Origin: Clostridia bacterium
GTDB lineage: Bacteria > Bacillota > Clostridia > UMGS1840
DNA: 64,000 nucleotides
Direction of reading: 5' to 3'
Assembly: GCA_017468465.1 (NCBI GenBank)
Contig: JAFUIN010000001.1
Span: 14,425 to 78,424 of the forward strand
Position numbers and translations under genes: made by a program. The stretch's first letter is position 1. Each line of letters begins with the position of its first letter. This document shows, piece after piece, positions 1,295 to 58,495 of the stretch. The notes below the pieces were generated by a model, which saw only the letters and a program-made list of their open reading frames with translations, was not told the DNA's origin and ran no database searches.

Positions 1295-1403
1295 TTCAAA
1301 AGATAAGAAATGTCGTCAAATGCTTAATGCTTGCGGCATTTTTTCTTTATCTGCCTGATTTTGTCAAATTAGGAAATTTTATCATGAAATCCGTAGGATT
1401 GGC

Positions 1404-1760: not shown

Positions 1761-1959
1761 GCTTTTTATTTTGCTGGTCAAAGGGTATCAAAAGTTTATT
1801 TCACCGCTTTTGGGTGCCCGATGCCGATTTTACCCAAGCTGTTCGCAATATGCCATTCTTGCCGTTCAAAAATACGGATTTTTCAAAGGTTTTTTGAAAG
1901 CCTGCTATCGTATTCTGCGATGCAATCCATGGAATCCGGGAGGCATCGACTACCCGTAA
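1753..1959 (+). CDS. yidD: Membrane protein insertion efficiency factor YidD
   Basis: 68 aa with YQKFISPLLG..CRFYPSCSQYA...RCNPW motif. It overlaps the rnpA end and precedes yidC. Confidence 0.9.
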   Translation: MSKLFILLVKGYQKFISPLLGARCRFYPSCSQYAILAVQKYGFFKGFLKACYRILRCNPWNPGGIDYP

Positions 1960-1987
1960 ACCGACCTGATTGGAAAGGAATATTTTA

Positions 1988-2893: not shown

Positions 2894-2911
2894 AAAGGTA
2901 GGAAACTATCC

Positions 2912-3730
2912 GTGAAAGAAATTATTACCTCTGCCAAAACCGTAGACGAAGCAATCGAAAAAGCAGTGGCAGAATTAGCAGTAGATAGAGATTTAATTGA
3001 ATTTGAAATTTTAAGCGCTCCCACCAACGGATTTTTAGGCCTGGGTGCAAAACCGGCAAGAATTTTAGCAAGATATGATGTGAAAAAACCGGAAGAAGTA
3101 AAAGAAGAACCCAAAAAAGTCGAAGCAAAAGCCCCCAAAGCAAAGGTGGAAAAGAACCCGGCAAAAGAAGTAAAGCAGCCTGAAACAAAGAAACCTACCA
3201 TCAATTATGAAGACGATGCTGATTTTGTTCCCAGTGAAAACGGTGTAAGCTTTGTGGAAGATTATGTGAAAAAACTGTTTGAATTAATGGGAATGGAAAT
3301 GACTGCAGAAGTTCGTCAGCAAGGCAGAATTATTTTTGTGAATATTGCGGGGGACGAAGCAGGCAGCATTATCGGAAAACACGGTGACACTTTGGATGCA
3401 ATTCAGCACATGCTGCAGCTTGCATTCAATAAAAAAGTAAAAGGCGGTGAAAAAATCCGTCTGGATACCGAAGACTATCGTATGAAACGTGAAAAAACCT
3501 TGACCGGTCTTGCAAAAAGCATTGCAAACCGTGTGATTAAATCACGTGGAAAATATGAATTGGAACCCATGAAAGCATATGAAAGAAGAATTATTCATTC
3601 TGCGCTTCAGAGCTATCCGATGATTACCACCTATTCTGTTGGTGTAGAGCCTCAGAGACGCTTGATTGTTGCATTTAAGCATAGAAATCAGCAAAATCAG
3701 GAAAATCAGGAAGCTGCTACAGAAGAATAA
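2912..3730 (+). CDS. jag: Jag/KhpB-type RNA-binding protein (Jag-N, KH and R3H domains)
   Basis: N-terminal TSAKTVDEAIEKAVAEL (Jag_N), a Lys/Glu-rich linker, then IIGKHGDTLDAIQ (KH) and ERRIIHSAL (R3H). Located downstream of yidC. Confidence 0.85.
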   Translation: MKEIITSAKTVDEAIEKAVAELAVDRDLIEFEILSAPTNGFLGLGAKPARILARYDVKKPEEVKEEPKKVEAKAPKAKVEKNPAKEVKQPETKKPTINYEDDADFVPSENGVSFVEDYVKKLFELMGMEMTAEVRQQGRIIFVNIAGDEAGSIIGKHGDTLDAIQHMLQLAFNKKVKGGEKIRLDTEDYRMKREKTLTGLAKSIANRVIKSRGKYELEPMKAYERRIIHSALQSYPMITTYSVGVEPQRRLIVAFKHRNQQNQENQEAATEE

Positions 3731-3830
3731 TCTGTGGATGAAGCCCACAGTCATTTGCTGTTTGTCGGATTGCACCAATCGCTACAACAAAAAAGGGACT
3801 GTCCTAAAAAAATGACAGTCCCTCACATAC

Positions 3831-3906
3831 GCTGGTGTAGCTCAGTCGGTAGAGCATCTCACTCGTAATGAGAAGGTCACGTGTTCAAGTCACGCCACCA
3901 GCTCCA
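3831..3906 (+). tRNA. tRNA-Thr (anticodon CGU), CCA encoded
   Basis: Hand-folded cloverleaf: 7-bp acceptor GCTGGTG/CACCAGC, D arm GCTC/GAGC, anticodon stem TCTCA/TGAGA with loop CTCGTAA, and T loop TTCAAGT. There is one A49-C65 mismatch and the discriminator is U. Confidence 0.93.
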
Positions 3907-3912
3907 AAAAAA

Positions 3913-3941
3913 ACGACAAGTTCGACTTGTCGTTTTTTTTT
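3913..3941 (+). terminator. Intrinsic terminator after tRNA-Thr
   Basis: ACGACAAGT-TCG-ACTTGTCGT hairpin followed by a 9-T run. Confidence 0.8.
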
Positions 3942-4077
3942 ATGAAACAAATTTTTCAGGATTTTTGAAATATACTTTGTGTGTAATTTGTTGCAATTTG
4001 AAATATATCGTGCTATAATGTTATAAGTTAATGAAAATTTATGATCTGTTACGGAAATAAACGAAGAGGAGTTCTAT

Positions 4078-5685
4078 TTAATCCTTTAGCAGCGCATAAC
4101 CGCTAAAGCTTGAGTATATTATGTTTCCATCCTCAAGATCAGCCGTAAAGGAAACCATGTATAATCCCACGTGTTCATTCACTCTGTAAACATCCAATTC
4201 GTGTTGTTCTGTGCCGTATTTTTGATGTAATTCTCTTGCAAGGTCATATAGATTGATGTTATACTGCTGACCGTTGTGATCAACTGTAAGAACCTCATCG
4301 TAGGCGTACACTTTGACCATTTGTTGATATTCTGTGATGTCAGCAGATGATTTTGTCTGGAAAAACCAGCCTTCATATCTGGATTCCTTTTCGCTGTCGG
4401 AAAAGCCGAATATTTCTGAAAAATTTTTTTCATCGTTTGGGATAAAGTCAGGCGTTTTTTTTGCATTATACTTCAAATAATTGTACGAGCTGATGATGGC
4501 TTTGGCATCTTCATCGTTGATGTTGTTGTTTGGAATCACAGCTCCATCGCTTATCATATTATTCTTCGTCAGGACATTTTTCAGGATAGCAGTCTGGCTG
4601 GCAACCGGCATGTCGATCACATTCAAAGGTGTAACGGTAACCAGCAATACAACCATTCCGGAGATCAGTGCAATCTTGTTTAAGTGCTTTGGCACAATGA
4701 TTGCTCCACCGATAAATAAGATGCTGATTGCAATTAGCACAAGAGAAATTGTTCTTGGTGTGGTGAGCCCGTATGCATTGATTCTTTCAAACACCGCAAG
4801 GGCTTGCATAATCAGCACGGGAATCAGAAAATAACCGCCATACTTTATAAAAAGCTTTGCAAGCTTTTCGGTATACTGCATCACGCTCATCACAAAGAAA
4901 ATGAAAAAGAGAGATGCAAAGGATGCAAACCAGTTAATTTCACCTACAGGCATATTCAGCGTGAATACGATTTTTGCAAGGTATATGAGCAAAATAGCGA
5001 TCAGAAGTATGTATAACGGCAATCCGGCATACAAAACAAAAATGCGGAATATTTTTGATTGTGATGCGGGAGTTTCCTTTTTTGGAATAAAGGAAAGAAA
5101 GATGTTGGGAAATCCTATCACCCATACAAAAAGGTTTACAAGTAAATATAGCTTATAGCTGTTATCCCAGGTGAATATCAGGGATTGAAAGGCTGCAATG
5201 CAGGTGGATAATCCACCGGAAAGCACCCCACATACCGCACCCGTAAAAATAAAAGAGGATACCAGCTTGGGAAATGCAACATCACGGTTTTCTCCTCGCA
5301 TCAGCGTTGAAAAGATAAAGCAGAGCAGCGCAACCATAATGCCGAAGTATGCCATAATGGTATACAGGGAGTCGTAGTTTTGTTTGATGAGTAAAAATCC
5401 TGCGATTGCAGTCAGTGCGCACAGGCTGTACTGTATCAGACTGTTTAGTTTATGGCTGATGTATTCCTGTATGGTTTTCAGGAGAACAGAAAACAACGCA
5501 ACCAAAGCATAGGTCATACACAAGGGAACGATGATTTCTTCCTTGCTTGATCCAAACAAAATTTCGTGGGATACAGTCAGATAACAGAGCACAGAACAGA
5601 CAAAGGCAATTAAATATCTTTGAATACCGTTTTTTACATTTGTGAAAAAGTTTTGAACATATTCTCGTACTTTCATGCTGAACAC
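4078..5685 (-). CDS. Hypothetical multi-pass membrane protein with a C-terminal soluble domain
   Basis: 535-aa ORF with about 10 or more hydrophobic segments and then a roughly 150-aa hydrophilic tail. I recognise no catalytic motif. A DUF4153-like family is a weak guess from memory. Confidence 0.7.
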   Translation of the reverse strand: MFSMKVREYVQNFFTNVKNGIQRYLIAFVCSVLCYLTVSHEILFGSSKEEIIVPLCMTYALVALFSVLLKTIQEYISHKLNSLIQYSLCALTAIAGFLLIKQNYDSLYTIMAYFGIMVALLCFIFSTLMRGENRDVAFPKLVSSFIFTGAVCGVLSGGLSTCIAAFQSLIFTWDNSYKLYLLVNLFVWVIGFPNIFLSFIPKKETPASQSKIFRIFVLYAGLPLYILLIAILLIYLAKIVFTLNMPVGEINWFASFASLFFIFFVMSVMQYTEKLAKLFIKYGGYFLIPVLIMQALAVFERINAYGLTTPRTISLVLIAISILFIGGAIIVPKHLNKIALISGMVVLLVTVTPLNVIDMPVASQTAILKNVLTKNNMISDGAVIPNNNINDEDAKAIISSYNYLKYNAKKTPDFIPNDEKNFSEIFGFSDSEKESRYEGWFFQTKSSADITEYQQMVKVYAYDEVLTVDHNGQQYNINLYDLARELHQKYGTEQHELDVYRVNEHVGLYMVSFTADLEDGNIIYSSFSGYALLKD

Positions 5686-5827
5686 ATCCTTTCTATAAGT
5701 CTATTTTAGCATAGCGGCTTTATATTTTCAAGATATTACGAAAAAAATCAGAAAGATATAGAAGCAGCCGAGGGAACAAGATTGTTGTTTGTTTTATCTA
5801 ATGTATTGATTTTTAAGGAGATAAACT

Positions 5828-6760
5828 ATGAAGTATTCAGACAGTTTTGGAAAGAAAAGCTCCCAAATACTTTTGGGGACTGCATATTTTGGAGACACCA
5901 TTTCCGAGGCAGAGGCATTTGCCATTATGGATAAATATTACGAGATGGGTGGCCGCCATATTGACGTTGCCCGTCTTTATGCAGATGGAGAAGCAGAAAA
6001 AGTAGTCGGAAAGTGGCTGAATGACAGAAAGCCTGCCGACATCCTTGTTTCCACCAAAGGCGGATATTATGATATGGATGGAGGAGAGGCACCCCGAATC
6101 AACGAAGCGGATATCCGTTTTGATTTGGAATGCAGTTTGAAGGCGTTAAAACAGGAGCAAATCGAATTTTACTGGCTTCACCGTGATGATGAAGCAAGAC
6201 CGGAAAATGAAATCATTGATATGATGAATCGGCTGGTCAAGGAAGGGAAAATTAAACAATTCGGTGCATCAAACTGGCGTTCACAAAGAATCGAAATGGC
6301 AAATCAATATGCAAAAGAAAATGGACTTGCCGGATTTTCAGCAAGTCAGATACGCTTTAATCCTGCCTATTGTCTGGGTGAAAGAGGCGGACTGGTAGGA
6401 ATGGATGCGGATGAGTTTGCATTCTATAAAAACAATCCTATGCCGGTGGTGGCATATTCTTCCCAGGCAAAAGGATTTTTCTCAAAGATGGCAGAACAGG
6501 GCGAAAGTGCGCTGTCCGAGAAAGCAAAAAAGCGGTACCTGTGTGAAGAAAATTTGAGACGGTTAGAGTTGATTAAACAGCTTTCGGCAGAACAGCGCTG
6601 CAGTGTTGCAGCTGTGGTATGCGGCATTCTTTGTTCTATCTCGGCTGTGGAGGTATTTCCGATTATCGGCGGAAGAACCCTTTCCCAGATTGAAGATTCT
6701 ATGAGAGGCGCGGATGTTTCAATTCCGGCAAATGTGATAACCGACGTGTTGGGTTATTAA
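5828..6760 (+). CDS. Aldo/keto reductase family oxidoreductase
   Basis: GTAYFG...GGRHIDVARLYADGEAE..VG, EFYWLHRDD and GKIKQFGASNW are typical AKR motifs. RBS AAGGAG lies upstream. Confidence 0.85.
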   Translation: MKYSDSFGKKSSQILLGTAYFGDTISEAEAFAIMDKYYEMGGRHIDVARLYADGEAEKVVGKWLNDRKPADILVSTKGGYYDMDGGEAPRINEADIRFDLECSLKALKQEQIEFYWLHRDDEARPENEIIDMMNRLVKEGKIKQFGASNWRSQRIEMANQYAKENGLAGFSASQIRFNPAYCLGERGGLVGMDADEFAFYKNNPMPVVAYSSQAKGFFSKMAEQGESALSEKAKKRYLCEENLRRLELIKQLSAEQRCSVAAVVCGILCSISAVEVFPIIGGRTLSQIEDSMRGADVSIPANVITDVLGY

Positions 6761-6779
6761 ACGCAAAAGAACAAGTATA

Positions 6780-7985
6780 ATGGAGAATGGGAAAATGAAT
6801 CTCTTGGATCAGTGTAAAAAATATGGAAAATTGATACTAAAATGGGTGCTTTTCGGCATCTTAATTGGCTTTCTTGGCGGACTATTGGGCACTGCTTTTC
6901 ATATCAGTGTGGATTTTGTTACCGAACAGCGGGAACATAACCATTGGATGATTTATCTGTTGCCTATTGGCGGGCTTCTTATTGCAGCGATGTATGGTCG
7001 CTTTCGTAACTTTGGCAATATTGACACAAAGCGTGTCTTTCAGGCGGTGAAAGAGAAAAAAGATGTTCCGCTTGTGATGATTCCACTGATTTTTTTTGGT
7101 ACGGTCATTACGCATGCATTGGGTGGTTCTGCCGGCAGAGAAGGGGCTGCACTCCAGCTTGGCGGCAGTATGGGCTACAATGTAGGACAAGCATTGAAGC
7201 AGGAGGATGACAGCAAAAAGCTGATGGTGGCAGCGGGGATGAGCAGTGTGTTTTCTGCTTTGTTTGGAACACCGCTTACTGCAACAGTTTTTTCCCTTGA
7301 GGCAACCAGAGTAGGAATGTTCAATTTTCGTGGCTTGCTTCCGGGGCTGATTTCTTCTGTGACAGCGTTTTTAGTATCCCGTTTTTGTGGGGTGGAACCG
7401 GTTCGTTTTCTGATGCCTTTCGTATCGGGGAATCTGATGTTTTCCATATTAAAGGTAATTGTGCTTGGGATTTTATGTGCAGGAGTTTCTATGGTGTTTG
7501 CATGGTCTCTTCACAAGAGTGAACATCTTGCGAAAAAGACTGCTCCGAATGCTTATGTTCGTGCTTTTGCCGGCGGGGTTCTGCTTGTGGGACTTACTTA
7601 TCTTGCCAAAACACACGACTATAACGGTGCGGGGATGGGTGTAATTGCAAATGCAATCGCCGGAGAAGCAAATTTTGAGGCGTTTCTTATGAAGATTCTG
7701 TTTACTGCAGTTACCGTTGCGGCTGGATTTAAGGGTGGCGAGATTGTGCCTACCTTTTTCATTGGAGCAACCTTTGGTTGCATGGCAAGCGGTCTGTTGG
7801 GGTTAGACCCCGGGTTTGGAGCCTGCCTTGGATTTATTGCTTTATTTTCCGGCATGACAAAATGTCCGTTTGCTTCCGTATTGTTAGGCTTGGAAGTGTT
7901 TGGGGTGAAGGGAATTCTCTTTTTTGCCATCATTGTTCCTGTCACTTACCTTTTTTCCGGACGTCTGGGACTATATAATGAATAA
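6780..7985 (+). CDS. ClC family anion channel/antiporter (short form, possibly CLC-F-like)
   Basis: GSAGREGAALQLG (gating-Glu motif without the Pro of GREGP), GTPLTA and GGEIVPTFFIGA; about 10-12 TM segments over 401 aa. Confidence 0.85.
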   Translation: MENGKMNLLDQCKKYGKLILKWVLFGILIGFLGGLLGTAFHISVDFVTEQREHNHWMIYLLPIGGLLIAAMYGRFRNFGNIDTKRVFQAVKEKKDVPLVMIPLIFFGTVITHALGGSAGREGAALQLGGSMGYNVGQALKQEDDSKKLMVAAGMSSVFSALFGTPLTATVFSLEATRVGMFNFRGLLPGLISSVTAFLVSRFCGVEPVRFLMPFVSGNLMFSILKVIVLGILCAGVSMVFAWSLHKSEHLAKKTAPNAYVRAFAGGVLLVGLTYLAKTHDYNGAGMGVIANAIAGEANFEAFLMKILFTAVTVAAGFKGGEIVPTFFIGATFGCMASGLLGLDPGFGACLGFIALFSGMTKCPFASVLLGLEVFGVKGILFFAIIVPVTYLFSGRLGLYNE

Positions 7986-7989
7986 AAAA

Positions 7990-8016
7990 ATCCCGTATGG
8001 AAACTCCATACGGGAT
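7990..8016. terminator. Bidirectional terminator between the ClC gene and rpsT
   Basis: ATCCCGTATGGA-AAC-TCCATACGGGAT perfect hairpin flanked by an A-run and T-rich sequence. Confidence 0.7.
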
Positions 8017-8034
8017 TCTTGGGACTTATGAGAA

Positions 8035-8304
8035 TTAACCTTTGATTGCCGCGTTGTATTTTTTCGCAACGTTAGATTTTTTTCTGGAAGCGGTGTTTTT
8101 CTTCAGAACGCCTTTGGTGCAAGCCATATCAATGGTTTTCACGGTGTTCTGGAAGATTTCTGCCAAGCCTGCTTTGTCTTCTTTGTCGCAAGCTGCTTCA
8201 AAAGTTTTTAAGGTAGTTTTTAAGTTAGATTTAATCATCTGGTTCTGCAGAGTTTTGGTTGCAATAACTTTTACTCTTTTTTCAGCGGATTTAATATTCG
8301 GCAT
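8035..8304 (-). CDS. rpsT: 30S ribosomal protein S20
   Basis: MPNIKSAEKRVKVIATKTLQNQMIKSNLKT... is a canonical S20 N-terminus; 89 aa. Confidence 0.95.
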   Translation of the reverse strand: MPNIKSAEKRVKVIATKTLQNQMIKSNLKTTLKTFEAACDKEDKAGLAEIFQNTVKTIDMACTKGVLKKNTASRKKSNVAKKYNAAIKG

Positions 8305-12898: not shown

Positions 12899-13921
12899 AT
12901 GAAAAAATTTCTGTTACCGGAAAGTGGTCAGTTTTACAAGGCGAATCTGCATTGTCACACCAATGTGTCAGATGGCAGACTTTCCCCTGCTGAAATGAAG
13001 GAAGAATACAAAAAAAGAGGCTATAGCGTGATTGCTTATACCGATCATAATGTGCTGGTTCCTCATCCGGAGCTGACCGATGATGGTTTTGTTGCACTTC
13101 ACGGCTTGGAATATGATATCACGGAAGAAGCAAAGCAAGATGAGCCGTTTCACCGGTTAAAAACCTGCCATATTTGTATGATCACTACCGATCCGGATTA
13201 TGTGGTGCAGCCCTGTTTTTGGTATTCCTGGCTCTATCAGCATTTGCCGGACCCATCTGTGGTTCAGCATGATGAGTCTATTCCGCCGTACGAATTTCAA
13301 TATACTCCCGAGTATATCAACGATATGATTAAAACCGCCCGTGAAAAAGGCTATTTTGTAACCTATAATCATCCGGCATGGTCTCAGGAAGGCTATGAAA
13401 TTTACAGCAAGTACGAAGGGATGAACGCCATGGAAATCTGCAACTACGGTTGTATTACCGAGGGATATCACGATTATAATCCCCATGTGTACGATGAGTT
13501 GCTCCGCCAGGGTAAAAAGCTGTACTGTATTGCAACTGATGATAACCACAACGGTCGCCCCCTGGATAGTCCACATTGCGATTCCTTTGGCGGTTTTACG
13601 ATGATTAAGGCAGAAAAGCTGGAATACAGAGCCATCGCTGATGCACTGAAAAACGGTAACTTCTATGCTTCACAGGGGCCTGAAATTCACAGCTTATATG
13701 TGGAAGACAACAAATTACATATTAAAACCTCTGATGCGGCAAAAATTGTCTTCACCACCGGTGTCCGCCACGGAAAGTGTCAGTATCCGTCGGAAGGGGA
13801 TACCATAAACGAAGCAGAGTTTGAGCTTCGCCCTGATGACATTTATGTTCGTGTGACCGTGTTTGACAAGAGCGGCAAGCCTGCTGATACCAACGCATAT
13901 TTTGTGGAAGATATTTTATAA
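12899..13921 (+). CDS. PHP-family metal-dependent phosphoesterase/hydrolase, paralog 1
   Basis: N-terminal ANLHCHTNVSDG (HxH) and AYTDHN, later TYNHP and ATDDNHN. RBS GAAGGAG lies upstream. 340 aa. Confidence 0.8.
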   Translation: MKKFLLPESGQFYKANLHCHTNVSDGRLSPAEMKEEYKKRGYSVIAYTDHNVLVPHPELTDDGFVALHGLEYDITEEAKQDEPFHRLKTCHICMITTDPDYVVQPCFWYSWLYQHLPDPSVVQHDESIPPYEFQYTPEYINDMIKTAREKGYFVTYNHPAWSQEGYEIYSKYEGMNAMEICNYGCITEGYHDYNPHVYDELLRQGKKLYCIATDDNHNGRPLDSPHCDSFGGFTMIKAEKLEYRAIADALKNGNFYASQGPEIHSLYVEDNKLHIKTSDAAKIVFTTGVRHGKCQYPSEGDTINEAEFELRPDDIYVRVTVFDKSGKPADTNAYFVEDIL

Positions 13922-13934
13922 AGGAGACCTCGCT

Positions 13935-14972
13935 ATGAGAACTTACTTATTGCCCGAAAAAGGACAGTTTTATAAAGCAAATTTACATTGTCATACCACC
14001 GTTTCCGACGGAAATCTGACGCCGGATGAAATCAAGGAGGCATACAAACAGCGCGGATATTCTGTTGTGGCATTTACCGACCATAATATTTTAGTGCCGC
14101 ATCCGTATCTGCAAAGCGACGATTTTGTGGCGTTGTATGGTATGGAATACTATTTTGCAGAGGTGCTTCCCGGTCAGTCATGGGAACAATCCAGAACCTC
14201 TCATTTGTGTCTGATTTCATTGGATCCTGAAAATGTGATTCAGCCTTGCTTTTATCAACCGAATTGGTTTTATGACAGACTTTTAGAACGTAACGACCCC
14301 CGCTATCAGGTGACATTGGATCCTAATGCGCCTGCTTACGAAAGAGTGTTCACACCCGACGGTGTGAATGAGGTGATTCAAACCGCCCGTGAAAAAGGTT
14401 TTTTTGTTACTTACAATCATCCCAAATGGTCCAAGGAGGGTTATGAAACCTACAGCCAATACAAGGGAATGCACGCCATTGAAATTTGCAACTACGCCTC
14501 CTATGTGAAGGGCTTCCACGAATATAACACCAAGGTGTATGAAGAAAAACTGCATAACGGTGAAAAAATCTTTGGTATTTCTGCCGACGATAACCATAAC
14601 GGTTCTCCCTTTGACAGCCCGTATAACGATTCCTTTGGTGCTTTTACCATGATCAAAGCAGAAAATTTGGATTACCGTTCCATTACCGATGCTTTGGTGA
14701 AAGGTCATTTTTACGCATCTATGGGGCCGGAAATTTACAGCATGTATCTGGAAGGCAACAAGTTGCACGTGAAAACCTCCGATGCAGCCATCATCAACTT
14801 TACCTCCGGCATCCGTCATTGCTATAATGAGTATTGTCCGGAAGGCGGCAAGCTCAACGAAGTTATTTTTGATGTATGGCCACAGGATATTTTCTTCAGA
14901 GTAACCGTGTGCGACAAAGAGGGCAGACGTGCAACCAGTAATGCCTACTTTGTGGAAGATTATGTGAAATAA
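13935..14972 (+). CDS. PHP-family metal-dependent phosphoesterase/hydrolase, paralog 2
   Basis: ATG 13935 is preceded by AAGGAGA, and the N-terminus MRTYLLPEKGQFYKANLHCHT aligns with paralogs 1 and 3. The track start at 13863 overlaps paralog 1 and is rejected. Confidence 0.8.
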   Translation: MRTYLLPEKGQFYKANLHCHTTVSDGNLTPDEIKEAYKQRGYSVVAFTDHNILVPHPYLQSDDFVALYGMEYYFAEVLPGQSWEQSRTSHLCLISLDPENVIQPCFYQPNWFYDRLLERNDPRYQVTLDPNAPAYERVFTPDGVNEVIQTAREKGFFVTYNHPKWSKEGYETYSQYKGMHAIEICNYASYVKGFHEYNTKVYEEKLHNGEKIFGISADDNHNGSPFDSPYNDSFGAFTMIKAENLDYRSITDALVKGHFYASMGPEIYSMYLEGNKLHVKTSDAAIINFTSGIRHCYNEYCPEGGKLNEVIFDVWPQDIFFRVTVCDKEGRRATSNAYFVEDYVK

Positions 14973-14988
14973 ACGGGAGGATTTTGAT

Positions 14989-16041
14989 ATGAGAAAATAT
15001 TTATTGCCCGAAAACGGACAGTTTTATAAAGCAAACTTACATAGCCATTCTACCATGTCTGACGGAAAGTTGTCTCCCGAAGAGATGAAGGCGGAATATC
15101 AGAAGCGCGGCTATAGCGTGATTGCTTATACCGACCATAACGTAATGGTTCCGCATCCGGAATTAACCGATGAAAACTTCGTTGCTCTCACCGGAACCGA
15201 ATACGATTTTGATAACGAAACCGAAGAAAATCCCTATCACGTGATTCCGGTTTGTCACATCTGCCTGATTGCATTGGACCCCGATAACGTGGTGCAGCCC
15301 TGTTTCAGCCTTCCCAATCGGTATTACGACAGAATCGTGTCATTCAACGACCCCCGATATACTGTTACTTACGATAAAACCCAGCCAAATTATTCCCGTG
15401 ATTATACGCCGGAATGTATCAACAACATTATGAAAACCGCCCGTGAAAAAGGCTTTTTCGTAACCTATAACCATCCCACCTGGTCGCTGGAACGGTTTGA
15501 AATTTACGGCAAGTACGAAGGGATGAATGCCATGGAAATCTGCAACTATGGTTGCGTTACCGAGGGCTATGACGAATATAATGCCGCTCAGTATGACGAA
15601 ATGCTTTCTGCCGGCAAAAAAATCTTTTGTATTGCAACCGATGATAATCACAACCACTATTCCTTTGACAGCCCTCGTTGCGATTCCTTTGGCGGCTTTA
15701 CTATGATTAAAGCGAAAAAGCTGGAATACCGTTCCATTACCGATGCACTGGTAAAAGGTCATTTCTATGCCTCTATGGGCCCCGAAATTTACAGCTTATA
15801 TCTGGAAGGCAACAAGCTTCACATCAAAACCTCCGATGCAAAGCGTATTGTGTTTGCCACCGGTATCCGCCATTGCCATACTGCATATCCCACCAACGGC
15901 GATCACATCAACGAAGCGGAATTTGAGCTTCGTCCTGATGATATTTATGTTCGTGTGACCGTGTTTGGGATGGACGGAAAACCTGCCGATACCAACGCTT
16001 ATTTCTTAGAAGACATCTTAGGCGAATCAGATAAAATGTAA
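14989..16041 (+). CDS. PHP-family metal-dependent phosphoesterase/hydrolase, paralog 3
   Basis: MRKYLLPENGQFYKANLHSHSTMSDG; RBS GGGAGGA upstream. The protein is a mosaic of paralog-1-like and paralog-2-like segments. Confidence 0.8.
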   Translation: MRKYLLPENGQFYKANLHSHSTMSDGKLSPEEMKAEYQKRGYSVIAYTDHNVMVPHPELTDENFVALTGTEYDFDNETEENPYHVIPVCHICLIALDPDNVVQPCFSLPNRYYDRIVSFNDPRYTVTYDKTQPNYSRDYTPECINNIMKTAREKGFFVTYNHPTWSLERFEIYGKYEGMNAMEICNYGCVTEGYDEYNAAQYDEMLSAGKKIFCIATDDNHNHYSFDSPRCDSFGGFTMIKAKKLEYRSITDALVKGHFYASMGPEIYSLYLEGNKLHIKTSDAKRIVFATGIRHCHTAYPTNGDHINEAEFELRPDDIYVRVTVFGMDGKPADTNAYFLEDILGESDKM

Positions 16042-51799: not shown

Positions 51800-51807
51800 A
51801 TTATCAC

Positions 51808-51865
51808 AAAAAATGACATTATTTGCATTGCAAGTATTGTCATTTTTGTTTTTTTGTGATAGAAT
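51808..51865 (+). repeat. Terminator-promoter cassette, copy A
   Basis: A 14-bp-arm hairpin (51813-51843) plus a T-run. The -35-like TTGTCA lies in the 3' arm (51837-51842), followed by 17 nt and an extended -10 TGATAGAAT (51857-51865). 52/58 identical, ungapped, to 57064-57121. Confidence 0.8.
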
Positions 51866-51890
51866 AGATTTAACGAAAGTTAAATCTATT
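51863..51890. promoter_or_regulatory. Perfect 12-bp inverted repeat overlapping the -10/TSS (candidate operator)
   Basis: AATAGATTTAAC-GAAA-GTTAAATCTATT, with all 12 pairs complementary. This segment is absent from cassette copy B. Confidence 0.6.
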
Positions 51891-51892
51891 TG

Positions 51893-51971
51893 GCTAAATT
51901 CGCGTTCCGCGAGCTAAATTGAGCAAGCTCAGCTAAATTGCCTACGGCAGCTAAATGTGCTTCGCACGCTA
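51893..51971 (+). repeat. Tandem array of four GCTAAAT + short hairpin modules (unclassified leader element)
   Basis: GCTAAAT occurs at 51893, 51913, 51932 and 51950, with GCTA at 51968. The spacers are distinct palindromes: TCGCG-TTC-CGCGA, TGAGC-AA-GCTCA, TGCC-TAC-GGCA and GTGC-TTC-GCAC. Confidence 0.75.
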
Positions 51972-52025
51972 CAGTATGAAACTCAGATAAAAATAAATTT
52001 TTTCGATTATAGGGAGAAGAATGAA

Positions 52026-52370
52026 ATGTATAAAAAAATAGAGCAGTTAAAAACAGTAACCAAAAAAACTAACGAAGGCAAAGATAAAATGTTCAAGACC
52101 AACCTTGCAGACTTTGACGGTTGGAATCCGAAAGCCAGACTGTTTTCTTTGGTGCAGGTACCGCCGGGGGAAGAAGTAGACTTTCATATGCACGTTGGTG
52201 AGAGTGAAACATTCTTTATTCTTTCCGGCAAGGGCATCTATACTGATAACGGAACTCAGGTTGAGGTGGCACCCGGAATGGTAACCTTCACACCCTCAGG
52301 GGAAGGCCATTCCATTAAAAATACGGGCGATGATATGCTTTCCTTTATCGCTTTGATTGTAGTTGATTAA
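52026..52370 (+). CDS. Cupin domain protein (small, single domain)
   Basis: Metal-site motifs FHMHVGESETFFILSG and PSGEGHSIKN. ATG 52026 lies 9 nt after AGGGAG. The track start (GTG 51957) lies inside the hairpin array and is rejected. Confidence 0.8.
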   Translation: MYKKIEQLKTVTKKTNEGKDKMFKTNLADFDGWNPKARLFSLVQVPPGEEVDFHMHVGESETFFILSGKGIYTDNGTQVEVAPGMVTFTPSGEGHSIKNTGDDMLSFIALIVVD

Positions 52371-52479
52371 ATGCCGACGTTTTGATTGGTGATACCCGGC
52401 TTGTCAAAAAAAGTAATCATGCTTAAAAATGTGGCAATGCCACAGTTCAAAAAAATATATAGATATGGAGGAATTCAAG

Positions 52480-53388
52480 ATGAATTCACAACAAGCAGTT
52501 CGTGCAGCGGTAGACGCTCACACTATTATTCCTGCGTTCAACATTCCCTATTTGCCGATGGTTGAACCGGTTGTTCAGGCGATTGTAGATGAGGATTCTT
52601 TGGCGATGGTTCAGGTTGCCCGTCTGGAATGGGAAAAATTTGAATCACAAAGTCCCGAAGCAGTTGCAAAAGAATATTTCAAGTTTGCAAAAGAAGGTTA
52701 CACCCTTCTTCATCTGGACCATGTTCCCGCCATTGACGAGGATATGAAAAAAGTAGATTATATGGATATTATCAAACGGGCATTGGATGTGGGCTATCAG
52801 TCTGTAATGGTTGACGGTTCCAGACTTCCCCTGGACGAAAACATTGCAACTACAGCAGAAGTTGCAGCACTGGCAAAAACCTTTGGAGCTGCAGTGGAAG
52901 CAGAATTGGGAGCAGTATCCGGTCACGAAGGAAGTGGCATCGGCTTAAGCTATGAAGAACTGTTTACCACCAAAAAAGGTTTCACAGTTCCGGAAGAAGC
53001 AAAACGGTTTGCAAAGGAATCCGGCTGTGACTGGTTGTCTGTTGCTGCCGGAAGTTTCCATGGCGCCATCGCGTCCAGCACCAAGCATCTGAAAAAGCCC
53101 AATGCAAGACTGGACATTGAACATATTAAAACATTGTCTGAAATTACCGGCAAAATGCCCTTGGTACTTCACGGCGGAAGCGGCATTGAGCAAGACTACA
53201 TCTTAAAAGCAATGGCAAACGGTATCGCAAAAATCAACGTAGGAACTGAAATCCGCCAGCCCTATGAATTTGCACTGGAAGAAAAACCGGGTGATATTGC
53301 CTATGCACAGCAGAAGGTGTATGACCGTACCCGTTGGGTAATTCATGAATTTTTGCGCACCACCGGTAACCACAGCAAATTAAAATAA
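52480..53388 (+). CDS. Class II ketose-bisphosphate aldolase family protein
   Basis: IIPAFNIPY, LHLDHV, VEAELG and LVLHGGSG motifs. ATG 52480 follows GGAGGAA. Confidence 0.8.
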   Translation: MNSQQAVRAAVDAHTIIPAFNIPYLPMVEPVVQAIVDEDSLAMVQVARLEWEKFESQSPEAVAKEYFKFAKEGYTLLHLDHVPAIDEDMKKVDYMDIIKRALDVGYQSVMVDGSRLPLDENIATTAEVAALAKTFGAAVEAELGAVSGHEGSGIGLSYEELFTTKKGFTVPEEAKRFAKESGCDWLSVAAGSFHGAIASSTKHLKKPNARLDIEHIKTLSEITGKMPLVLHGGSGIEQDYILKAMANGIAKINVGTEIRQPYEFALEEKPGDIAYAQQKVYDRTRWVIHEFLRTTGNHSKLK

Positions 53389-53428
53389 AATTGTAAGCAC
53401 ACCTCACGGTACAGTGTAAGGAGCCATT

Positions 53429-54394
53429 ATGAAAACAGTTTTTATTTTGAATCCCAAGGCAGGTAAGGGACGGCAAAAAGAAAAAACAGAAGAAATTCTG
53501 CTCAAAATAATTGCCGAAAAGGAGCTGGATGCACAAGTTTACGTCACCGCCTATCCGGGCGATGCCACAAGGTTTGTGAGAGAGCATTGTAAGACTTATG
53601 GAGCGGCCCGGTTTATTGCTTGTGGCGGAGATGGAACCTTAAGCGAAGTGCTAAACGGCGCTGTTGGGTTTTCGGGGGCAGAGGTTGGTGTGATGCCGCT
53701 GGGAAGCGGAAACGATTTTTGCAGAAATTTCCCGTGTGATACTGCATTTGGCGATGTATATTTGCAGGCAGTATCGGAAGCTGTTGCTTGTGACGCCATT
53801 CGGTATACTACCACGGTGAACGGAGAAGCTGTTACGGGGTATTGTGCAAATATGTTTAATATTGGCTTTGACTGTAAGGTGGCAGATACCACCAATCATC
53901 TGAAAGATAAAACTGTATTTGGTGGTTCTTTTGCATACTTTTTGTCCATTCTTATGAATCTGATTCAAAAGAAGGTGACGTTTCTTACGGTAACAGCAGA
54001 CGGGCTTTGTGAGCATAGCGGAGCAACGCTTTTAACCTCTGTTGCCAACGGAAAATACTGTGGCGGCGGGATTATGAGCAATCCGATGGCATCCTTACGT
54101 GATGGGAGAATCAATTTCAATATCATCAGAAACATTTCCCGTTTGCGGTTTGTTTCGTTGCTCTTTTCTTATATGAAAGGGACGCATATGTCCAAAAAAG
54201 GAATTGAGAAGTACATATTGTCCAAGCATTGCAAAACCTTGACGGTAACGCCGGAGAACGGCATTATGAGGCTTTGTATTGATGGAGAAATTGTGACTGC
54301 CGGTGAAACCACCTTTGAAATTGTGCCCAATGCGATTCAGTTTGTGTTGCCCGGGGTGAAAAACCAAAGCACGTTAATCGGAGTATGCAGATAA
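53429..54394 (+). CDS. Diacylglycerol kinase-family lipid kinase (YegS/DagK-like)
   Basis: FIACGGDGTLSEVLNG and MPLGSGNDFCRNF motifs. Confidence 0.85.
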   Translation: MKTVFILNPKAGKGRQKEKTEEILLKIIAEKELDAQVYVTAYPGDATRFVREHCKTYGAARFIACGGDGTLSEVLNGAVGFSGAEVGVMPLGSGNDFCRNFPCDTAFGDVYLQAVSEAVACDAIRYTTTVNGEAVTGYCANMFNIGFDCKVADTTNHLKDKTVFGGSFAYFLSILMNLIQKKVTFLTVTADGLCEHSGATLLTSVANGKYCGGGIMSNPMASLRDGRINFNIIRNISRLRFVSLLFSYMKGTHMSKKGIEKYILSKHCKTLTVTPENGIMRLCIDGEIVTAGETTFEIVPNAIQFVLPGVKNQSTLIGVCR

Positions 54395-54410
54395 AAAATC
54401 AAAAAAATAC

Positions 54411-54439
54411 TTGACAATCGTTTACAGATATGGTATACT
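54411..54439 (+). promoter_or_regulatory. Sigma-A promoter of the T-box-controlled gene
   Basis: TTGACA (54411-54416), 17 nt, TATACT (54434-54439). Confidence 0.7.
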
Positions 54440-54445
54440 ATGCTC

Positions 54446-54737
54446 TAATGAAAGGCTGTGACGAAGAGGGCAGATTCAGGCGAACCTTTGAGAGAAGTGG
54501 CGGTTGGTGCGAGCCATAGGGGACAGAGTTTGTTTGTAGCTTCTGAGCCGGGAGGAAGAAAGTTTTCAAAAGAAATGAGTAGAACCTCTCCGTGATTGCT
54601 GCGTTAAGGCATAAGAGGTTGTTAGACCTTAAGAGTGGCGATAGAATTATCGCAATTTGAGTGGTACCGCGGGTGAATAATTGCTAAAACACTCGTCTCA
54701 AAGAATTTTACCGATGCTTTGAGGCGAGATTTTTTTT
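54446..54737 (+). promoter_or_regulatory. T-box riboswitch leader (tRNA-sensing transcription attenuator)
   Basis: Stem I has a K-turn (GGC-UGU-GA.../...GA-GCC, 54454-54549), an AGAGA bulge (54491-54495) and distal loop GGUUGGUGCGA. Stem II has AGUAGAA. The T-box sequence AAUUUGAGUGGUACCGCGGGUG lies at 54654-54675. The terminator is CTCGTCTCAAAG/CTTTGAGGCGAG plus U8 (54692-54737). Confidence 0.85.
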
Positions 54738-54763
54738 GCCTCAAAAAAGGAGGATTTTTTAAT

Positions 54764-57055
54764 ATGGAAAACTCAATGGACATCAGCTTAAAAATTAAGG
54801 AGATGGCATGGCGTATTCGCGAGCTTCGGGAAATTGAAGGCTTTACCCCCGAAGATATGGCGGAAAAGACAGGTGTATCGTTGGAAGACTATCGGAAAAT
54901 GGAAAATGGAGAAGCAGACCTGAACTTTGCTTTTATTTACCGTTGTGCAGAAGTGTTCCGGGTAAACGTTACCGATATTATCGAAGGTACCAGCCCCAAT
55001 CTTCGCTCTTACACAGTGACTCGTGCAGGAGCTGGTCAGCAGATTGCAAAGGCTCATGGCATGGTATATTACAATATGGCACATGCTTTCCGTAACAGAA
55101 TCGCAGAGCCCTTGTATGTTGTAAGCACCTATGATGAAGCAGCACAAAATAAAGACATTGAACTGACCACTCACGAAGGTCAGGAATGTGATATTGTGAT
55201 TGAAGGCAATCTGATGGTGCAAATCGGGGAACATAAAGAAGTGCTTGGCCCCGGCGACAGCATTTACTATAACAGTAGCACTCCCCACGGTATGATTGCT
55301 GTAAATGGAAAAGACTGTAAATTCTACGCGTTTGTGCTTCGTGCCGATGCCGAAGTTGCTGAAAAAGTGGCAGAAGTGGTTCCTACAGAGCAGATTATCG
55401 GCTCCATTCATCGGGATACCAAAGACAGAATTTATCATAAATTTATCGACGTGGTGGAAGACGAACAGGGAACACCTACCTCTATCACCTTCAAAAATAC
55501 AGAAAAGTTCAATTTTGCATTCGATTTGGTGGATGAGCTGTCCAGAAAAGAGCCGGACAAGCTTTGTATGCTCCACATTTCCAAAAACAAAACCGAACGT
55601 CGCTTCACCTTTACCGATATGCGTAAAAAATCCAGCCAGTGTGCTAACTATTTTGCATCCTTGGGGATTAAAAAGGGCGACCGCGTTATGCTCATTTTAA
55701 GACGTCACTATCAGTTCTGGATTGCTATGCTGGGGCTGAATAAGCTGGGTGCTGTTGCCATTCCGGCGGTTGACCAGCTGCACGAGCATGATTTGGAATA
55801 TCGTTTCCAGTCTGCAGGGGTTAGTGCAATTGTTTGTACTGCAGAAGGCGAAGTTTCAAACTATGTTGATATGGCGGCGAAAAATTGCCCCACATTGCAG
55901 CATAAAATGCTGGTTGGCGGCAAAAAAGAGGGCTGGAGAAGCTTTAACGAAGAATATAAACGCTTCAGCACACATTTTGAACGTACCGAAGATTCTCCCT
56001 GCGGTGATGATACCATGCTGATGTATTTCACCTCCGGAACCTCCGGCTATCCGAAAATTGCTACCCATAACTATAAATATCCTTTGGGTCATTTTCATAC
56101 TGCTAAATATTGGCACAATGTAGACCCTGACGGATTGCACTTTACCATTTCCGATACCGGTTGGGCAAAGGCAATGTGGGGCAAATTATACGGTCAGTGG
56201 CTGTGCGAAGCGGCAACCTTTGTATACGATTTTGACCGATTTGATGCAGCAGAAATTCTGCCCATGTTCCAGAAGCATCACATTACCACCTTCTGTGCAC
56301 CGCCTACTATGTTGCGCATGATGATAAAACAGGACATTTCCAAATACGACTTTTCTTCTGTTCGTCATATGACTACCGCTGGAGAAGCACTGAATCCGGA
56401 AGTGTACCGTCAATTTGAAAAAGCAACTGGCTTACAGATTAAAGAAGGTTTCGGTCAGACCGAAAGCACCATGATTATCGGGAACCTGGTTGGTAAGCCT
56501 CATAAAATCGGTGCAATGGGAAAACCGGCACCGATTTACAAGGTAGAGCTTCATAATGCAGACGGTGAACAGGTAAAAACCAGTGAATCCGGCGAAATTG
56601 TTATCAATGTTAAAGACGGCGCACCTTGCGGTCTCTTTACCGGATATTACGGTGACGAAGAAAAAACCAAAGAGGTATGGCACGATGGCTATTATCACAC
56701 CGGTGACGTTGCCTGGTGCGATGAAGACGGATATTATTGGTATGTTGGCCGTGTGGACAATGTTATTAAATCTTCCGGATACAGAATCGGACCCTTTGAA
56801 ATTGAAAGCGTTATTATGGAGCTTCCATATGTTTTGGAATGCGGTGTTTCTGCTGTTCCCGATGAAGTAAGAGGGCAGATTGTAAAAGCCAGCATCGTAT
56901 TGGTTAACGGCACGGAAGGCACAGATGAGCTGAAAAAAGAAATCCAGAATTATGTTAAGGAAAAAACAGCTCCCTATAAGTACCCCAGAATTGTTGAATT
57001 CAAGGAATCGTTGCCCAAAACCGTAAGCGGAAAAATTCAGAGAAACAAATTGTAA
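54764..57055 (+). CDS. Fusion protein: XRE-type HTH + cupin + AMP-forming acyl-CoA synthetase (medium/short-chain ACS-like)
   Basis: N-terminal HTH (IRELREIEGFTPEDMAEKTGVSLEDYRKMENG), cupin (GDSIYYNSSTPHGM), then adenylation motifs YFTSGTSGYPK, EGFGQTES, YYHTGD, GRVDNVIKSSGYRIGPFEIE and PKTVSGKIQR. ATG 54764 lies 9 nt after AAAGGAGGA. Confidence 0.85.
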   Translation: MENSMDISLKIKEMAWRIRELREIEGFTPEDMAEKTGVSLEDYRKMENGEADLNFAFIYRCAEVFRVNVTDIIEGTSPNLRSYTVTRAGAGQQIAKAHGMVYYNMAHAFRNRIAEPLYVVSTYDEAAQNKDIELTTHEGQECDIVIEGNLMVQIGEHKEVLGPGDSIYYNSSTPHGMIAVNGKDCKFYAFVLRADAEVAEKVAEVVPTEQIIGSIHRDTKDRIYHKFIDVVEDEQGTPTSITFKNTEKFNFAFDLVDELSRKEPDKLCMLHISKNKTERRFTFTDMRKKSSQCANYFASLGIKKGDRVMLILRRHYQFWIAMLGLNKLGAVAIPAVDQLHEHDLEYRFQSAGVSAIVCTAEGEVSNYVDMAAKNCPTLQHKMLVGGKKEGWRSFNEEYKRFSTHFERTEDSPCGDDTMLMYFTSGTSGYPKIATHNYKYPLGHFHTAKYWHNVDPDGLHFTISDTGWAKAMWGKLYGQWLCEAATFVYDFDRFDAAEILPMFQKHHITTFCAPPTMLRMMIKQDISKYDFSSVRHMTTAGEALNPEVYRQFEKATGLQIKEGFGQTESTMIIGNLVGKPHKIGAMGKPAPIYKVELHNADGEQVKTSESGEIVINVKDGAPCGLFTGYYGDEEKTKEVWHDGYYHTGDVAWCDEDGYYWYVGRVDNVIKSSGYRIGPFEIESVIMELPYVLECGVSAVPDEVRGQIVKASIVLVNGTEGTDELKKEIQNYVKEKTAPYKYPRIVEFKESLPKTVSGKIQRNKL

Positions 57056-57063
57056 AAAATATA

Positions 57064-57121
57064 AAAAAATGACAATATTTGCTTTGCAAGTATTGTCATT
57101 TTTAATTTTATGTGATATAAT
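57064..57121 (+). repeat. Terminator-promoter cassette, copy B
   Basis: Hairpin ATGACAATATTTGC-TTT-GCAAGTATTGTCAT (57069-57099) plus a T-run. TTGTCA (57093-57098), 17 nt, then TGATATAAT (57113-57121). It terminates the ACS gene and promotes the MFS gene. Confidence 0.8.
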
Positions 57122-57172: not shown

Positions 57173-58495
57173 ATGAACACACAAACGACAAAAAGTTGGC
57201 GCACAAACAAATGGATGAGAGCAGCAATTCCGGCGCTTTTACTGCATTGCAGTATCGGAACCGTTTACTGCTGGTCCATTTTCAGCCAGGAAATTGCAGA
57301 TTATATCGGCTTTTCAAAGGGTGCTACCGAGTGGGCATTCAGCCTTGCGATTTTCTTTTTGGGGATGTCGGCAGCCTTTTTGGGAAATATTGTAGAAAAA
57401 GATATCCATAAATCGTCTTTGATTGCTACCATCTGCTTTGCAATCGGCATGGCGGGAACCGGTGGATTTATCTACTATGGCGGTCTTCATCAGGGAAGTG
57501 TGGTTTCTTTAATCGGCATTTATCTTTGCTATGGCGTCATTATGGGCATCGGCTTGGGAACCGGCTATCTTTCTCCCGTCAAAACGCTGATGATCTGGTT
57601 TAGCGACAAAAAAGGTCTTGCAACCGGCCTTGCAGTTGCAGGCTTTGGTGCAGCAAAAGCGATTGCCAGCCCCATTATGCAGTCAATGCTTTCTTCCATG
57701 GGGGAAAGCGGAATCTACAAAATGTTTTTGATTTTGGCTTGTGTATATTTTGTCATGATGTTTATCGGGCATCTTTTGCTGAAAAAGCCGGACGATTGGC
57801 ATGAGCCTACGGGAGCAGAAAAGAAAGACAGCATCATGACCGTCTTAAAATCCAGACCGATTAGCAACTATGTTGGGATCTGGCTGATGTTCTACATCAA
57901 CATTACATGCGGGCTGGCCCTTTTGTCGCAAGAAAAAATGATTGTAAAATGTATCGGCTTAGCAAGCTTTGTAGGGGTTATTTCTACGGTGTCTGCAATC
58001 TTTAATGCTGTGGGACGTCTTGGCTTTTCTGCTTGGGGCGACAAGATGAAAGACAGAAACACCATCTATAAAATTATTTTTGCTTTCTCTATTTTGTTTA
58101 CTGCCATTGTCATTGTAACAAATGGTATTGCAAACGGCGCAAACAGCGGCTTTTTAGCAGCGTTAGTGCTGATTCTCATTATGTTTGTCAATGCAGGCTA
58201 TGGCGGCGGATTTTCCAATGTTCCCACCTTGCTGTCTGACCATTACGGCATGGGAAGCATCAGCGCAATTCACGGAATCACCCTTTCTGCATGGGCATTT
58301 GCAGGGCTTAGCGGAAATCAGCTTGCTACCTGGATTGTAAATAATTTTGGAAATCCCGTTACACAAAATGGAGTTACGGTGAATCCCCAGGGATACCAGA
58401 TGGTGCTTTATGTTACCATTGCACTTTACATCGTTGCAATGCTTCTGAGTATGTTTTTGGTAAAAAGCAAAGCAGAAGTAAAGCAGAAGGCTTAA
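57173..58495 (+). CDS. MFS transporter (oxalate/formate antiporter-like, OFA family)
   Basis: About 12 TM segments over 440 aa, with N-terminus RWMRAAIPALLLHCSIGTVYCWSIF typical of OFA-type MFS carboxylate transporters (from memory). Confidence 0.75.
   Translation: MNTQTTKSWRTNKWMRAAIPALLLHCSIGTVYCWSIFSQEIADYIGFSKGATEWAFSLAIFFLGMSAAFLGNIVEKDIHKSSLIATICFAIGMAGTGGFIYYGGLHQGSVVSLIGIYLCYGVIMGIGLGTGYLSPVKTLMIWFSDKKGLATGLAVAGFGAAKAIASPIMQSMLSSMGESGIYKMFLILACVYFVMMFIGHLLLKKPDDWHEPTGAEKKDSIMTVLKSRPISNYVGIWLMFYINITCGLALLSQEKMIVKCIGLASFVGVISTVSAIFNAVGRLGFSAWGDKMKDRNTIYKIIFAFSILFTAIVIVTNGIANGANSGFLAALVLILIMFVNAGYGGGFSNVPTLLSDHYGMGSISAIHGITLSAWAFAGLSGNQLATWIVNNFGNPVTQNGVTVNPQGYQMVLYVTIALYIVAMLLSMFLVKSKAEVKQKA

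Follow-up and report, generated by a model that had tools for sequence, protein, structure and literature searches.

A complete T-box riboswitch with a valine specifier was found directly upstream of a gene encoding a helix-turn-helix (HTH)–cupin–acyl-CoA synthetase fusion protein in a 64,000-nt stretch of the genome of a Clostridia bacterium of the UMGS1840 lineage (assembly GCA_017468465.1, contig JAFUIN010000001.1, positions 14,425 to 78,424 of the forward strand), hereafter referred to as the window. Judged from its sequence, the leader is a bona fide class-I transcriptional T-box specific for tRNA-Val, with a predicted response to that tRNA. In related genomes, the same T-box and fusion gene head an operon that also encodes a VOR-type 2-oxoacid:ferredoxin oxidoreductase (VOR; 2-oxoisovalerate as the expected 2-oxo acid) and a branched-chain aminotransferase (BCAT). 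As the best explanation for these findings, a valine-responsive switch that controls the salvage of isobutyrate to valine is considered probable.

The T-box leader and its valine specifier

A permissive cmscan of positions 54350-54800 aligned the leader with the Rfam T-box model RF00230 over its full length (54449-54703, model positions 1-219; 85.7 bits, E 2.5e-19). This score falls just under the Rfam gathering score of 93 for the model, and when the whole window was scanned with gathering thresholds, the T-box leader was missed and a tRNA was the sole hit. The elements of the leader, the gene that it precedes, and the adjoining features are as follows (positions in the window).

54391..54409, + strand: A-rich tract ATAAAAAATCAAAAAAATA just 5' of the -35 box, a putative UP-like element read from the sequence
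54411..54439, + strand: sigma-70-type promoter, TTGACA, 17-nt spacer, TG-n-TATACT (extended -10), 11/12 matches
54449..54737, + strand: complete transcriptional T-box leader (Stem I, Stem II, IIA/B, Stem III, antiterminator/terminator), from RF00230 and covariation in 41 orthologs
54454..54549, + strand: Stem I (K-turn base, GAAG/CUUC helix, AG bulge, distal loop), from covariance model alignment and covariation
54536..54539, + strand: specifier GUA (Val) with 3' purine G, from the specifier position of the covariance model, orthologs, and the TBDB position rule and codon usage
54550..54633, + strand: Stem II (GGGAGG 54550-55/CCUCUC 54585-90; S-turn AGUAGAA 54578-84) and IIA/B region, from covariance model alignment and covariation
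54638..54653, + strand: Stem III, GCGAUA-GAAU-UAUCGC, from sequence, covariance model alignment and covariation
54658..54700, + strand: antiterminator, two helices around the bulge UGGUACC (54662-68), from covariance model alignment
54692..54737, + strand: intrinsic terminator, CUCGUCUCAAAG paired with CUUUGAGGCGAG, from sequence, minimum free energy (MFE) and centroid folds, and covariation
54748..54753, + strand: ribosome-binding site AGGAGG, 10 nt upstream of the start codon, read from the sequence
54764..57055, + strand: regulated gene for a 763-aa HTH-cupin-acyl-CoA synthetase fusion, from translation, Pfam, NCBIfam, PDB 3ETC and fold search
57065..57103, + strand: hairpin and T-run terminator ending the T-box-controlled unit
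57173-58495: major facilitator superfamily (MFS) transporter of the SfMCT/oxalate-formate (monocarboxylate) type, with its own near-consensus promoter at 57093-57121 (TTGTCA, 17 nt, TG-n-TATAAT)

Stem I starts from a K-turn in which GGC (54454-56) pairs with GCC (54547-49), with UGU (54457-59) as the bulge and G54460/A54461 facing G54545/A54546, and continues with a helix of GAAG (54463-66) and CUUC (54540-43). The AG bulge is AGAGA (54491-95), and the distal loop GGUUGGUGCGA occupies 54502-12, with its GGUUGGUG part at 54502-09; in T-boxes, these two elements build the platform for the tRNA elbow. Among 41 orthologous leaders, the GA/GA tandem of the K-turn, the AGAGA bulge, and GGUUGGUG are invariant or nearly so. 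The T-box sequence extends over 54654-75, and its TGGTACCGCG core, which forms part of the antiterminator, is invariant in all orthologs. The UGGU of this core is expected to pair with the tRNA 3' end ACCA, which implies an A73 discriminator; tRNA-Cys carries U73.

The terminator consists of 12 bp (54692-54703 with 54717-54728, including one G-U pair), behind which come A and U8 (54729-37). The 3' strand of the antiterminator and the 5' strand of the terminator overlap, and the two structures are mutually exclusive. An earlier note on this DNA, made from the sequence alone, had described a T-box with these elements and a 12-bp terminator with U8; the full-length model match bears out the former, with every listed element found in place, and the terminator appears in both the MFE and centroid folds. 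The note had also proposed an antiterminator of GAGUG paired with CACUC in competition with the terminator. The competition was retained, but not that pairing, which would bury the UG of UGGU; the covariance model instead gives UGAG (54658-61) with CUCA (54697-700) and GCGGG (54669-73) with CUCGU (54692-96), around a 7-nt bulge.

Close relatives of the fusion protein number in the thousands. All 120 matches listed share 80-93% identity with it over 98-100% of the query and carry the cupin and AMP-binding domains, and most also match an HTH family. In a scan of orthologous loci limited to one genome per species, relatives were found in at least 552 species genomes, and locus-level comparisons were made with the best 80 loci (75-96% identity), all of which derive from metagenome-assembled genomes (MAGs) of gut or rumen Clostridia, Oscillospiraceae or Acutalibacteraceae. 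The TGGTACCGCG core lies upstream of the fusion gene in 76 of these 80 loci. Two of the remaining four (L021 and L051) are cut by contig ends and one (L032) is ambiguous, and only L014 truly lacks the leader: before this 87% identical ortholog (3500-4000), there is a promoter with a short leader from which the T-box core is missing.

The single-sequence MFE fold of the whole leader was uninformative (z = -1.17), in line with a two-state RNA, and covariation was used instead. RNAalifold recovered the canonical T-box helices from the 41 aligned leaders. In this alignment, 93.9% of cells are paired, vs. 34-52% when partners are slid, and compensatory double changes occur in 36 of the 51 helix pairs; none of 500 shuffles reached the observed values. 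The helices of Stem I (helices 1-5) are paired in 77-100% of cells and show compensatory changes, and those of Stem II and IIA/B (helices 6-8) in 93-98%, with many double changes. Pairing reaches 97.5% in Stem III (helix 9) and 99.6% in the terminator (helix 10).

The covariance model alignment places GUA (54536-38) and G54539 at the specifier position of the model. GUA followed by a purine and abutting the CTTC helix is invariant in 77/77 Val-type leaders (the window and 76 loci). The bases 5' of GUA vary among them (UUUGUAG, UCGGUAG, CAAUGUAG, GCAGUAG), and the overlapping UGU and UUG frames are therefore not conserved. In TBDB, GUA is the commonest Val specifier (usage 0.61), and UGU has a usage of 0.00 for Cys. 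The assignment in the earlier note of a Val GUA specifier with discriminator A73 thus stands on the alignment, the orthologs, and TBDB usage, as does its dismissal of UGU (Cys).

Class-I specifier loops usually contain an AGUA/GAA S-turn, but this subfamily lacks it: the loop in the window has AGG on its 5' side and UUGUAG on its 3' side, the deviation is family-wide, and the S-turn of Stem II is present. Scores of the subfamily (window 54449-54703; L058 1063-1307 and 3697-3945) range from 85.7 to 93.5 bits, with the two L058 leaders at 93.5 bits (GUA-G) and 87.4 bits (AUC-A). Since these values lie at or below the gathering threshold, default Rfam annotation would miss many leaders of this kind.

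The fusion protein and its isoleucine-type paralog

The fusion protein comprises an XRE-type HTH domain (aa 13-76), a cupin domain (aa ~115-195), and an AMP-forming synthetase domain similar to Macs and MbcS (aa ~253-763), with Pfam matches to HTH_3 (aa 18-71), Cupin_2 (aa 131-189), AMP-binding (aa 260-629), and AMP-binding_C. The catalytic motifs of the synthetase are all intact and highly conserved. The best NCBIfam match was MbcS (NF047394; 440.4 bits), ahead of acetate-CoA ligase models, and the closest solved structure was PDB 3ETC, Macs of M. acetivorans (624 bits, E 2e-186, aligned end to end). In this alignment, the Gly (FGQTE) that stands in place of the acetate-pocket Trp of Acs and an alternative pocket Trp (AKYW) are both kept in the window protein. 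Macs prefers 2-methylbutyrate and has this Gly where true acetyl-CoA synthetases have their acetate-pocket Trp (PMC10455477); MbcS of S. aureus is selective for 2-methylbutyrate and isobutyrate (PMC10026030). By these comparisons, the synthetase is placed in a subfamily related to MbcS and is not regarded as an MbcS ortholog. It most likely converts isobutyrate, ATP, and CoA to isobutyryl-CoA. The Pfam, NCBIfam, and 3ETC matches agree with the earlier note in making the target an adenylate-forming short/medium-chain acyl-CoA synthetase; the alternative raised there, that the enzyme adenylates the amino acid itself, gained no support.

In ~25 of the operon loci described in the next section, a second fusion paralog with its own promoter and T-box lies immediately upstream, and the specifier of this T-box is AUC (Ile) in all 26 cases. 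Comparison of 63 Val-type sequences (62 from the loci and that of the window) with 25 Ile-type sequences revealed 23 positions fixed differently between the two types. Six of these are in the synthetase domain (N326H, A468G, M471L, A483G, M570L, and G573A, from Val- to Ile-type) and 17 in the HTH-cupin module. When the two paralogs of one genome are compared, their HTH-cupin modules are only 44-54% and their synthetase domains 76% identical. The Ile-type shares its residues at 326, 468, and 573 with Macs, whereas the Val-type differs from Macs there. Ala468 of the Val-type, against Gly in the Ile-type and Macs, is compatible with a tighter fit for a smaller C4 acid, and the pattern is reversed at 573, where the Val-type has Gly and the Ile-type has Ala. 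Although suggestive only, the paralog-specific residues could fit a Val-type enzyme that acts on a smaller C4 acid and an Ile-type enzyme that acts on a C5 acid.

In the tandem loci (L046-L075; e.g. L053 3600-3720 and L058 3636-3700), the promoter of the Val T-box lies within a few tens of bases after the stop codon of the Ile-type gene, and no obvious terminator was seen between the two. As to a third paralog serving leucine from isovalerate, an extra AMP-binding copy in L072 proved to be an unrelated FadD-like enzyme (31% identity), and no Leu-type paralog was found in a search that was not exhaustive.

The N-terminal HTH-cupin module gave no sequence match in the PDB. No stand-alone homolog was found in a search with the N-terminal part, whose matches were all fragments of this fusion family truncated at contig ends, and the module thus seems to occur essentially only in this family. 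In an AlphaFold model (mean pLDDT 67.7), the HTH and cupin domains were confident and the connector was not. The best Foldseek matches were HppE, HEPD, MPnS, and Psf4, enzymes whose catalytic unit is built from an HTH-like domain and a metal cupin, together with the HTH_3 regulator 1Y9Q of V. cholerae, with identities of only 13-20% and TM-scores of ~0.34. His137, Glu141, and His175 (nt 55172-55174, 55184-55186, and 55286-55288) are invariant in 88/88 Val- and Ile-type fusions, and their H-x3-E...H spacing resembles the iron triad of HppE. The paralog-specific substitutions E133H, C142F, and M151K share a sequence stretch with these residues, which hints at a paralog-specific ligand pocket near the candidate metal ligands. 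The module may sense a ligand and thereby gate the enzyme, act as a regulator that binds DNA, or do both; in anaerobes such as these, chemistry that depends on O2 is unlikely.

Operons of related genomes and the proposed salvage route

Approximately 30 more distant loci (L042, L046-L075, L079, and L080) share one same-strand operon headed by the T-box(GUA) and fusion gene. The fusion gene is followed, in order, by genes for a P-loop ATPase, a 2x[4Fe-4S] ferredoxin (68 aa), VorB (alpha), the beta and gamma subunits, and BCAT, with start and stop codons that overlap or nearly abut. The alpha subunit passes the NCBIfam model '3-methyl-2-oxobutanoate dehydrogenase subunit VorB' (567 vs. a cutoff of 399), and the aminotransferase passes the branched-chain aminotransferase equivalog (448 vs. 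a cutoff of 307). The P-loop ATPase (~220 aa; CbiA/ParA, NUBPL-like) is conserved in 31 loci (e.g. L049 6283-6945) and has no NCBIfam name; its start codon overlaps the stop codon of the fusion gene (ATGA). The ATPase may deliver Fe-S clusters to VOR or assist in its maturation.

These operons lend strong independent support to the isobutyrate-to-valine route, which the earlier note had offered as speculation. In the proposed mechanism, charging of tRNA-Val would allow the terminator to form, and transcription would stop before the fusion gene. When valine is short, the anticodon UAC of uncharged tRNA-Val would pair with GUA in Stem I and its free ACCA end with UGGU, so that the antiterminator would be stabilized and polymerase would read through into the fusion gene in the window and into the whole operon in the relatives. 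The synthetase domain would then activate isobutyrate to isobutyryl-CoA, VOR would carboxylate this to 2-oxoisovalerate using reduced ferredoxin and CO2, and BCAT would convert the 2-oxo acid to valine. Isobutyrate, which is abundant in the gut and rumen, would thus be salvaged under valine shortage, and the Ile-type paralog would open the same route from 2-methylbutyrate. We infer the substrate, and the direction in which VOR runs, from homology, the context of the operon, and the logic of its regulation: given induction by uncharged tRNA-Val, only the biosynthetic direction fits. The loci would accordingly be read as carrying two paralogous activating enzymes, each apparently wired to a different branched-chain amino acid (BCAA) and set beside enzymes that convert the branched acyl-CoA to that amino acid.

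Several observations weigh against this salvage route. The RF00230 score of the leader is below the gathering threshold and its specifier loop is non-canonical, and the window contains no tRNA-Val gene that would confirm the anticodon UAC and A73. The synthetase stays below the MbcS equivalog cutoff of 850 bits, and the substrate is consequently assigned from homology and context. No homolog of VOR, BCAT, or the P-loop ATPase lies within the 64-kb window, and in the closest relatives (87-93% identical) VOR and BCAT are absent within 10 kb of the fusion gene; the oxidoreductase that the earlier note had proposed to look for was thus found only in the operons of relatives. We infer that the VOR and BCAT steps are encoded elsewhere in the genome of the window lineage. 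Of the two T-boxes in the tandem loci, only that for Val has VOR and BCAT behind it, which leaves access to these enzymes unexplained for a shortage of isoleucine only. Finally, the MFS transporter downstream gives no support, having a separate promoter and being absent from all 80 related loci.

One other purpose for the same activation step is that isobutyryl-CoA serves as a FabH primer for iso-even branched-chain fatty acids, sparing scarce valine for protein synthesis. The best family match, MbcS, has a demonstrated role in supplying such primers, and the gene stands alone, with neither VOR nor BCAT, in the window lineage, for which primer supply is possible. The VOR and BCAT genes that share its operon in ~30 genomes are, however, needed for amino-acid synthesis and not for primer supply, so that these operons would be left unaccounted for. 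BCAT and VOR induced in valine shortage and running in the oxidative direction would consume valine, and the parallel Ile-specific paralog fits an amino-acid logic. As a general account, primer supply is therefore regarded as unlikely.

It is a little less likely still that the synthetase acts on another acid, such as acetate, propionate, butyrate, or an aromatic or hydroxy acid, with an indirect link to valine. The domain gives below-cutoff matches to many CoA-ligase families (e.g. acetate-CoA ligase PRK04319, 381 bits), and the adenylation step of Macs is broad in range. Against this, the acetate-pocket Trp is replaced by Gly, both of the closest characterised relatives, Macs and MbcS, prefer branched C4/C5 acids, and an enzyme for another acid would hardly explain Val and Ile T-boxes on two paralogs or the VorB and BCAT neighbours.

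A regulator as the main output of the T-box is judged quite improbable. The HTH-cupin module would then bind DNA and control ilv, vor, or transporter genes, with the synthetase as a BirA-like sensor. XRE-cupin regulators typically combine HTH_3 and Cupin_2 modules, 1Y9Q is among the fold matches, and 17 of the 23 paralog-specific positions fall in this module. Against it, no conserved palindrome or operator was found in the 101 promoter regions inspected, where only promoter and A-tract elements recur; the top fold matches are HppE-type enzymes, whose HTH-like domain does not bind DNA, and the synthetase motifs have stayed catalytically intact and highly conserved. Such a regulatory function is also compatible with an enzymatic role and does not exclude it.

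Misassignment of the specifier, with the switch sensing another tRNA through UGU (Cys), UUG (Leu), or a shifted frame, is suggested by the loop without an AGUA/GAA S-turn and by the overlap of both UGU and UUG with GUA in the window, but can be considered effectively excluded, given that orthologs show CGGUAG, AUGUAG, and CAGUAG in place of these frames, that TBDB gives 0.00 for UGU as a Cys specifier, and that the A73 implied by UGGU is at odds with tRNA-Cys.

Within the framework of isobutyrate-to-valine salvage, the fusions may, more tentatively, be 'trigger enzymes' of an undescribed regulon for BCAA salvage, with two layers of amino-acid-specific control, in uncultured Oscillospirales of the gut and rumen, a possibility that we consider worth stating although the odds are against it. 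A Val- or Ile-specific T-box would set transcription as the first layer. The second would be a metal-binding cupin that senses a ligand of its own pathway (valine or isoleucine, or their 2-oxo acids) and that would either put the adenylating enzyme under feedback control or direct the HTH domain to DNA.

Genomic context and relation to known systems

The promoter in the window lies 10 nt upstream of the leader, and in almost every orthologous locus, Stem I is directly preceded by an equivalent promoter close to the consensus. In one of them (L043 3400-3500), a tRNA gene directly precedes the Val T-box leader, replacing the usual promoter context. Tracts of the AAAAAATCRAAAAAA type recur just 5' of the -35 box in many orthologous loci, including those of distant lineages. 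The A-tract probably serves as an UP element; lacking a palindrome, it is unlikely to be an operator. The terminator behind the fusion gene overlaps the promoter of the MFS transporter gene, and the fusion gene is predicted to be monocistronic in the window. The transporter was considered as a member of the unit and rejected, on account of the terminator and promoter in between and its absence from 80/80 related loci. The proximity of a monocarboxylate transporter to a carboxylate-activating enzyme is suggestive, yet the gene is separate and its position unconserved.

In the closest relatives, a gene for a small GNAT acetyltransferase (~143 aa) is located 60-130 nt downstream of the fusion gene (L081 12424-12858, L082 12355-12786, and L083 3128-3559); in the window, no GNAT gene is found behind the fusion gene. 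Lysine acetylation by GNAT enzymes is the classical way of switching off AMP-forming acyl-CoA synthetases, and the acetyltransferase could be a further layer of control in these relatives. The closest relative, L081, is syntenic with the window (FtsH, RNase H1, YegS-type kinase, and fusion gene). Between its RNase H and kinase genes (1132-8154), it carries an insertion that resembles a mobile or defence island, with genes for recombinases, a resolvase, a KilA-N protein, an HD protein, and an AAA_21 ATPase; the window has a class-II aldolase instead (51800-53400). Elsewhere in the window (12899-16041), there are three tandem paralogs of 340-369 aa, each with a weak Pfam PHP-domain match (~31 bits).

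The leader in the window has the same full architecture as the class-I T-boxes of Firmicutes valS, ileS, and ilv-leu leaders and the commonest Val specifier, and its mechanism as such is unsurprising to specialists. The targets of classical T-boxes are aminoacyl-tRNA synthetases, ilv genes, and transporters, whereas the target here is an acyl-CoA synthetase fusion, accompanied in relatives by a VOR/BCAT salvage operon. Macs shares the pocket Gly and the AKYW Trp with the window synthetase but, unlike the fusion, has neither an HTH-cupin module nor a T-box. XRE-cupin regulators (1Y9Q) and the enzymes HppE, HEPD, and MPnS have the same two-domain composition as the N-terminal module, and the His-x3-Glu...His pattern is like the metal triad of HppE; in contrast to all of these, the module here forms one protein with an acyl-CoA synthetase.

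Reductive carboxylation of branched-chain volatile fatty acids (VFAs) to the keto acids of BCAAs was reportedly described by Allison and co-workers in rumen bacteria and methanogens. The route proposed here is the same (acid, acyl-CoA, 2-oxo acid, amino acid), and the loci analysed come from rumen and hindgut MAGs; the classical work was physiological. In the searchable literature, no dedicated activating enzyme, operon, or regulator for conversion of branched acids to BCAAs was found. The isobutyrate and 2-methylbutyrate that MbcS activates come from the medium (PMC10026030), and the enzyme feeds fatty-acid synthesis; in the literature on MbcS that was examined, neither control by a T-box nor an N-terminal fusion is described. 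The full-text literature searched, the Wels 2008 survey, the RegPrecise RNA-regulon paper, and TBDB make no mention of an acyl-CoA synthetase or VOR preceded by a T-box, the search having covered sources other than subscription-only papers. The T-box type, the rumen pathway, and the enzyme families were thus already known. What appears to be undescribed is their combination, namely a T-box on an acyl-CoA synthetase together with a VOR/BCAT salvage operon, the Val/Ile paralog pair, and the HTH-cupin fusion.

T-boxes reliably report which amino acid a downstream gene serves, and in this case they would assign a function to an abundant protein family that has no name. The loci provide concrete candidate genes, with their regulation, for the conversion of isobutyrate to valine and of 2-methylbutyrate to isoleucine, and would extend T-box regulons to the salvage of carboxylic acids. 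Conversion of branched acids has been known for decades in rumen physiology and underlies the feeding of 'isoacids' to ruminants; with these genes, an old question of rumen and gut microbiology becomes directly testable. If the fusions do act as trigger enzymes, the genes would represent the molecular basis of the long-known use of, or requirement for, branched-chain VFAs in such bacteria.

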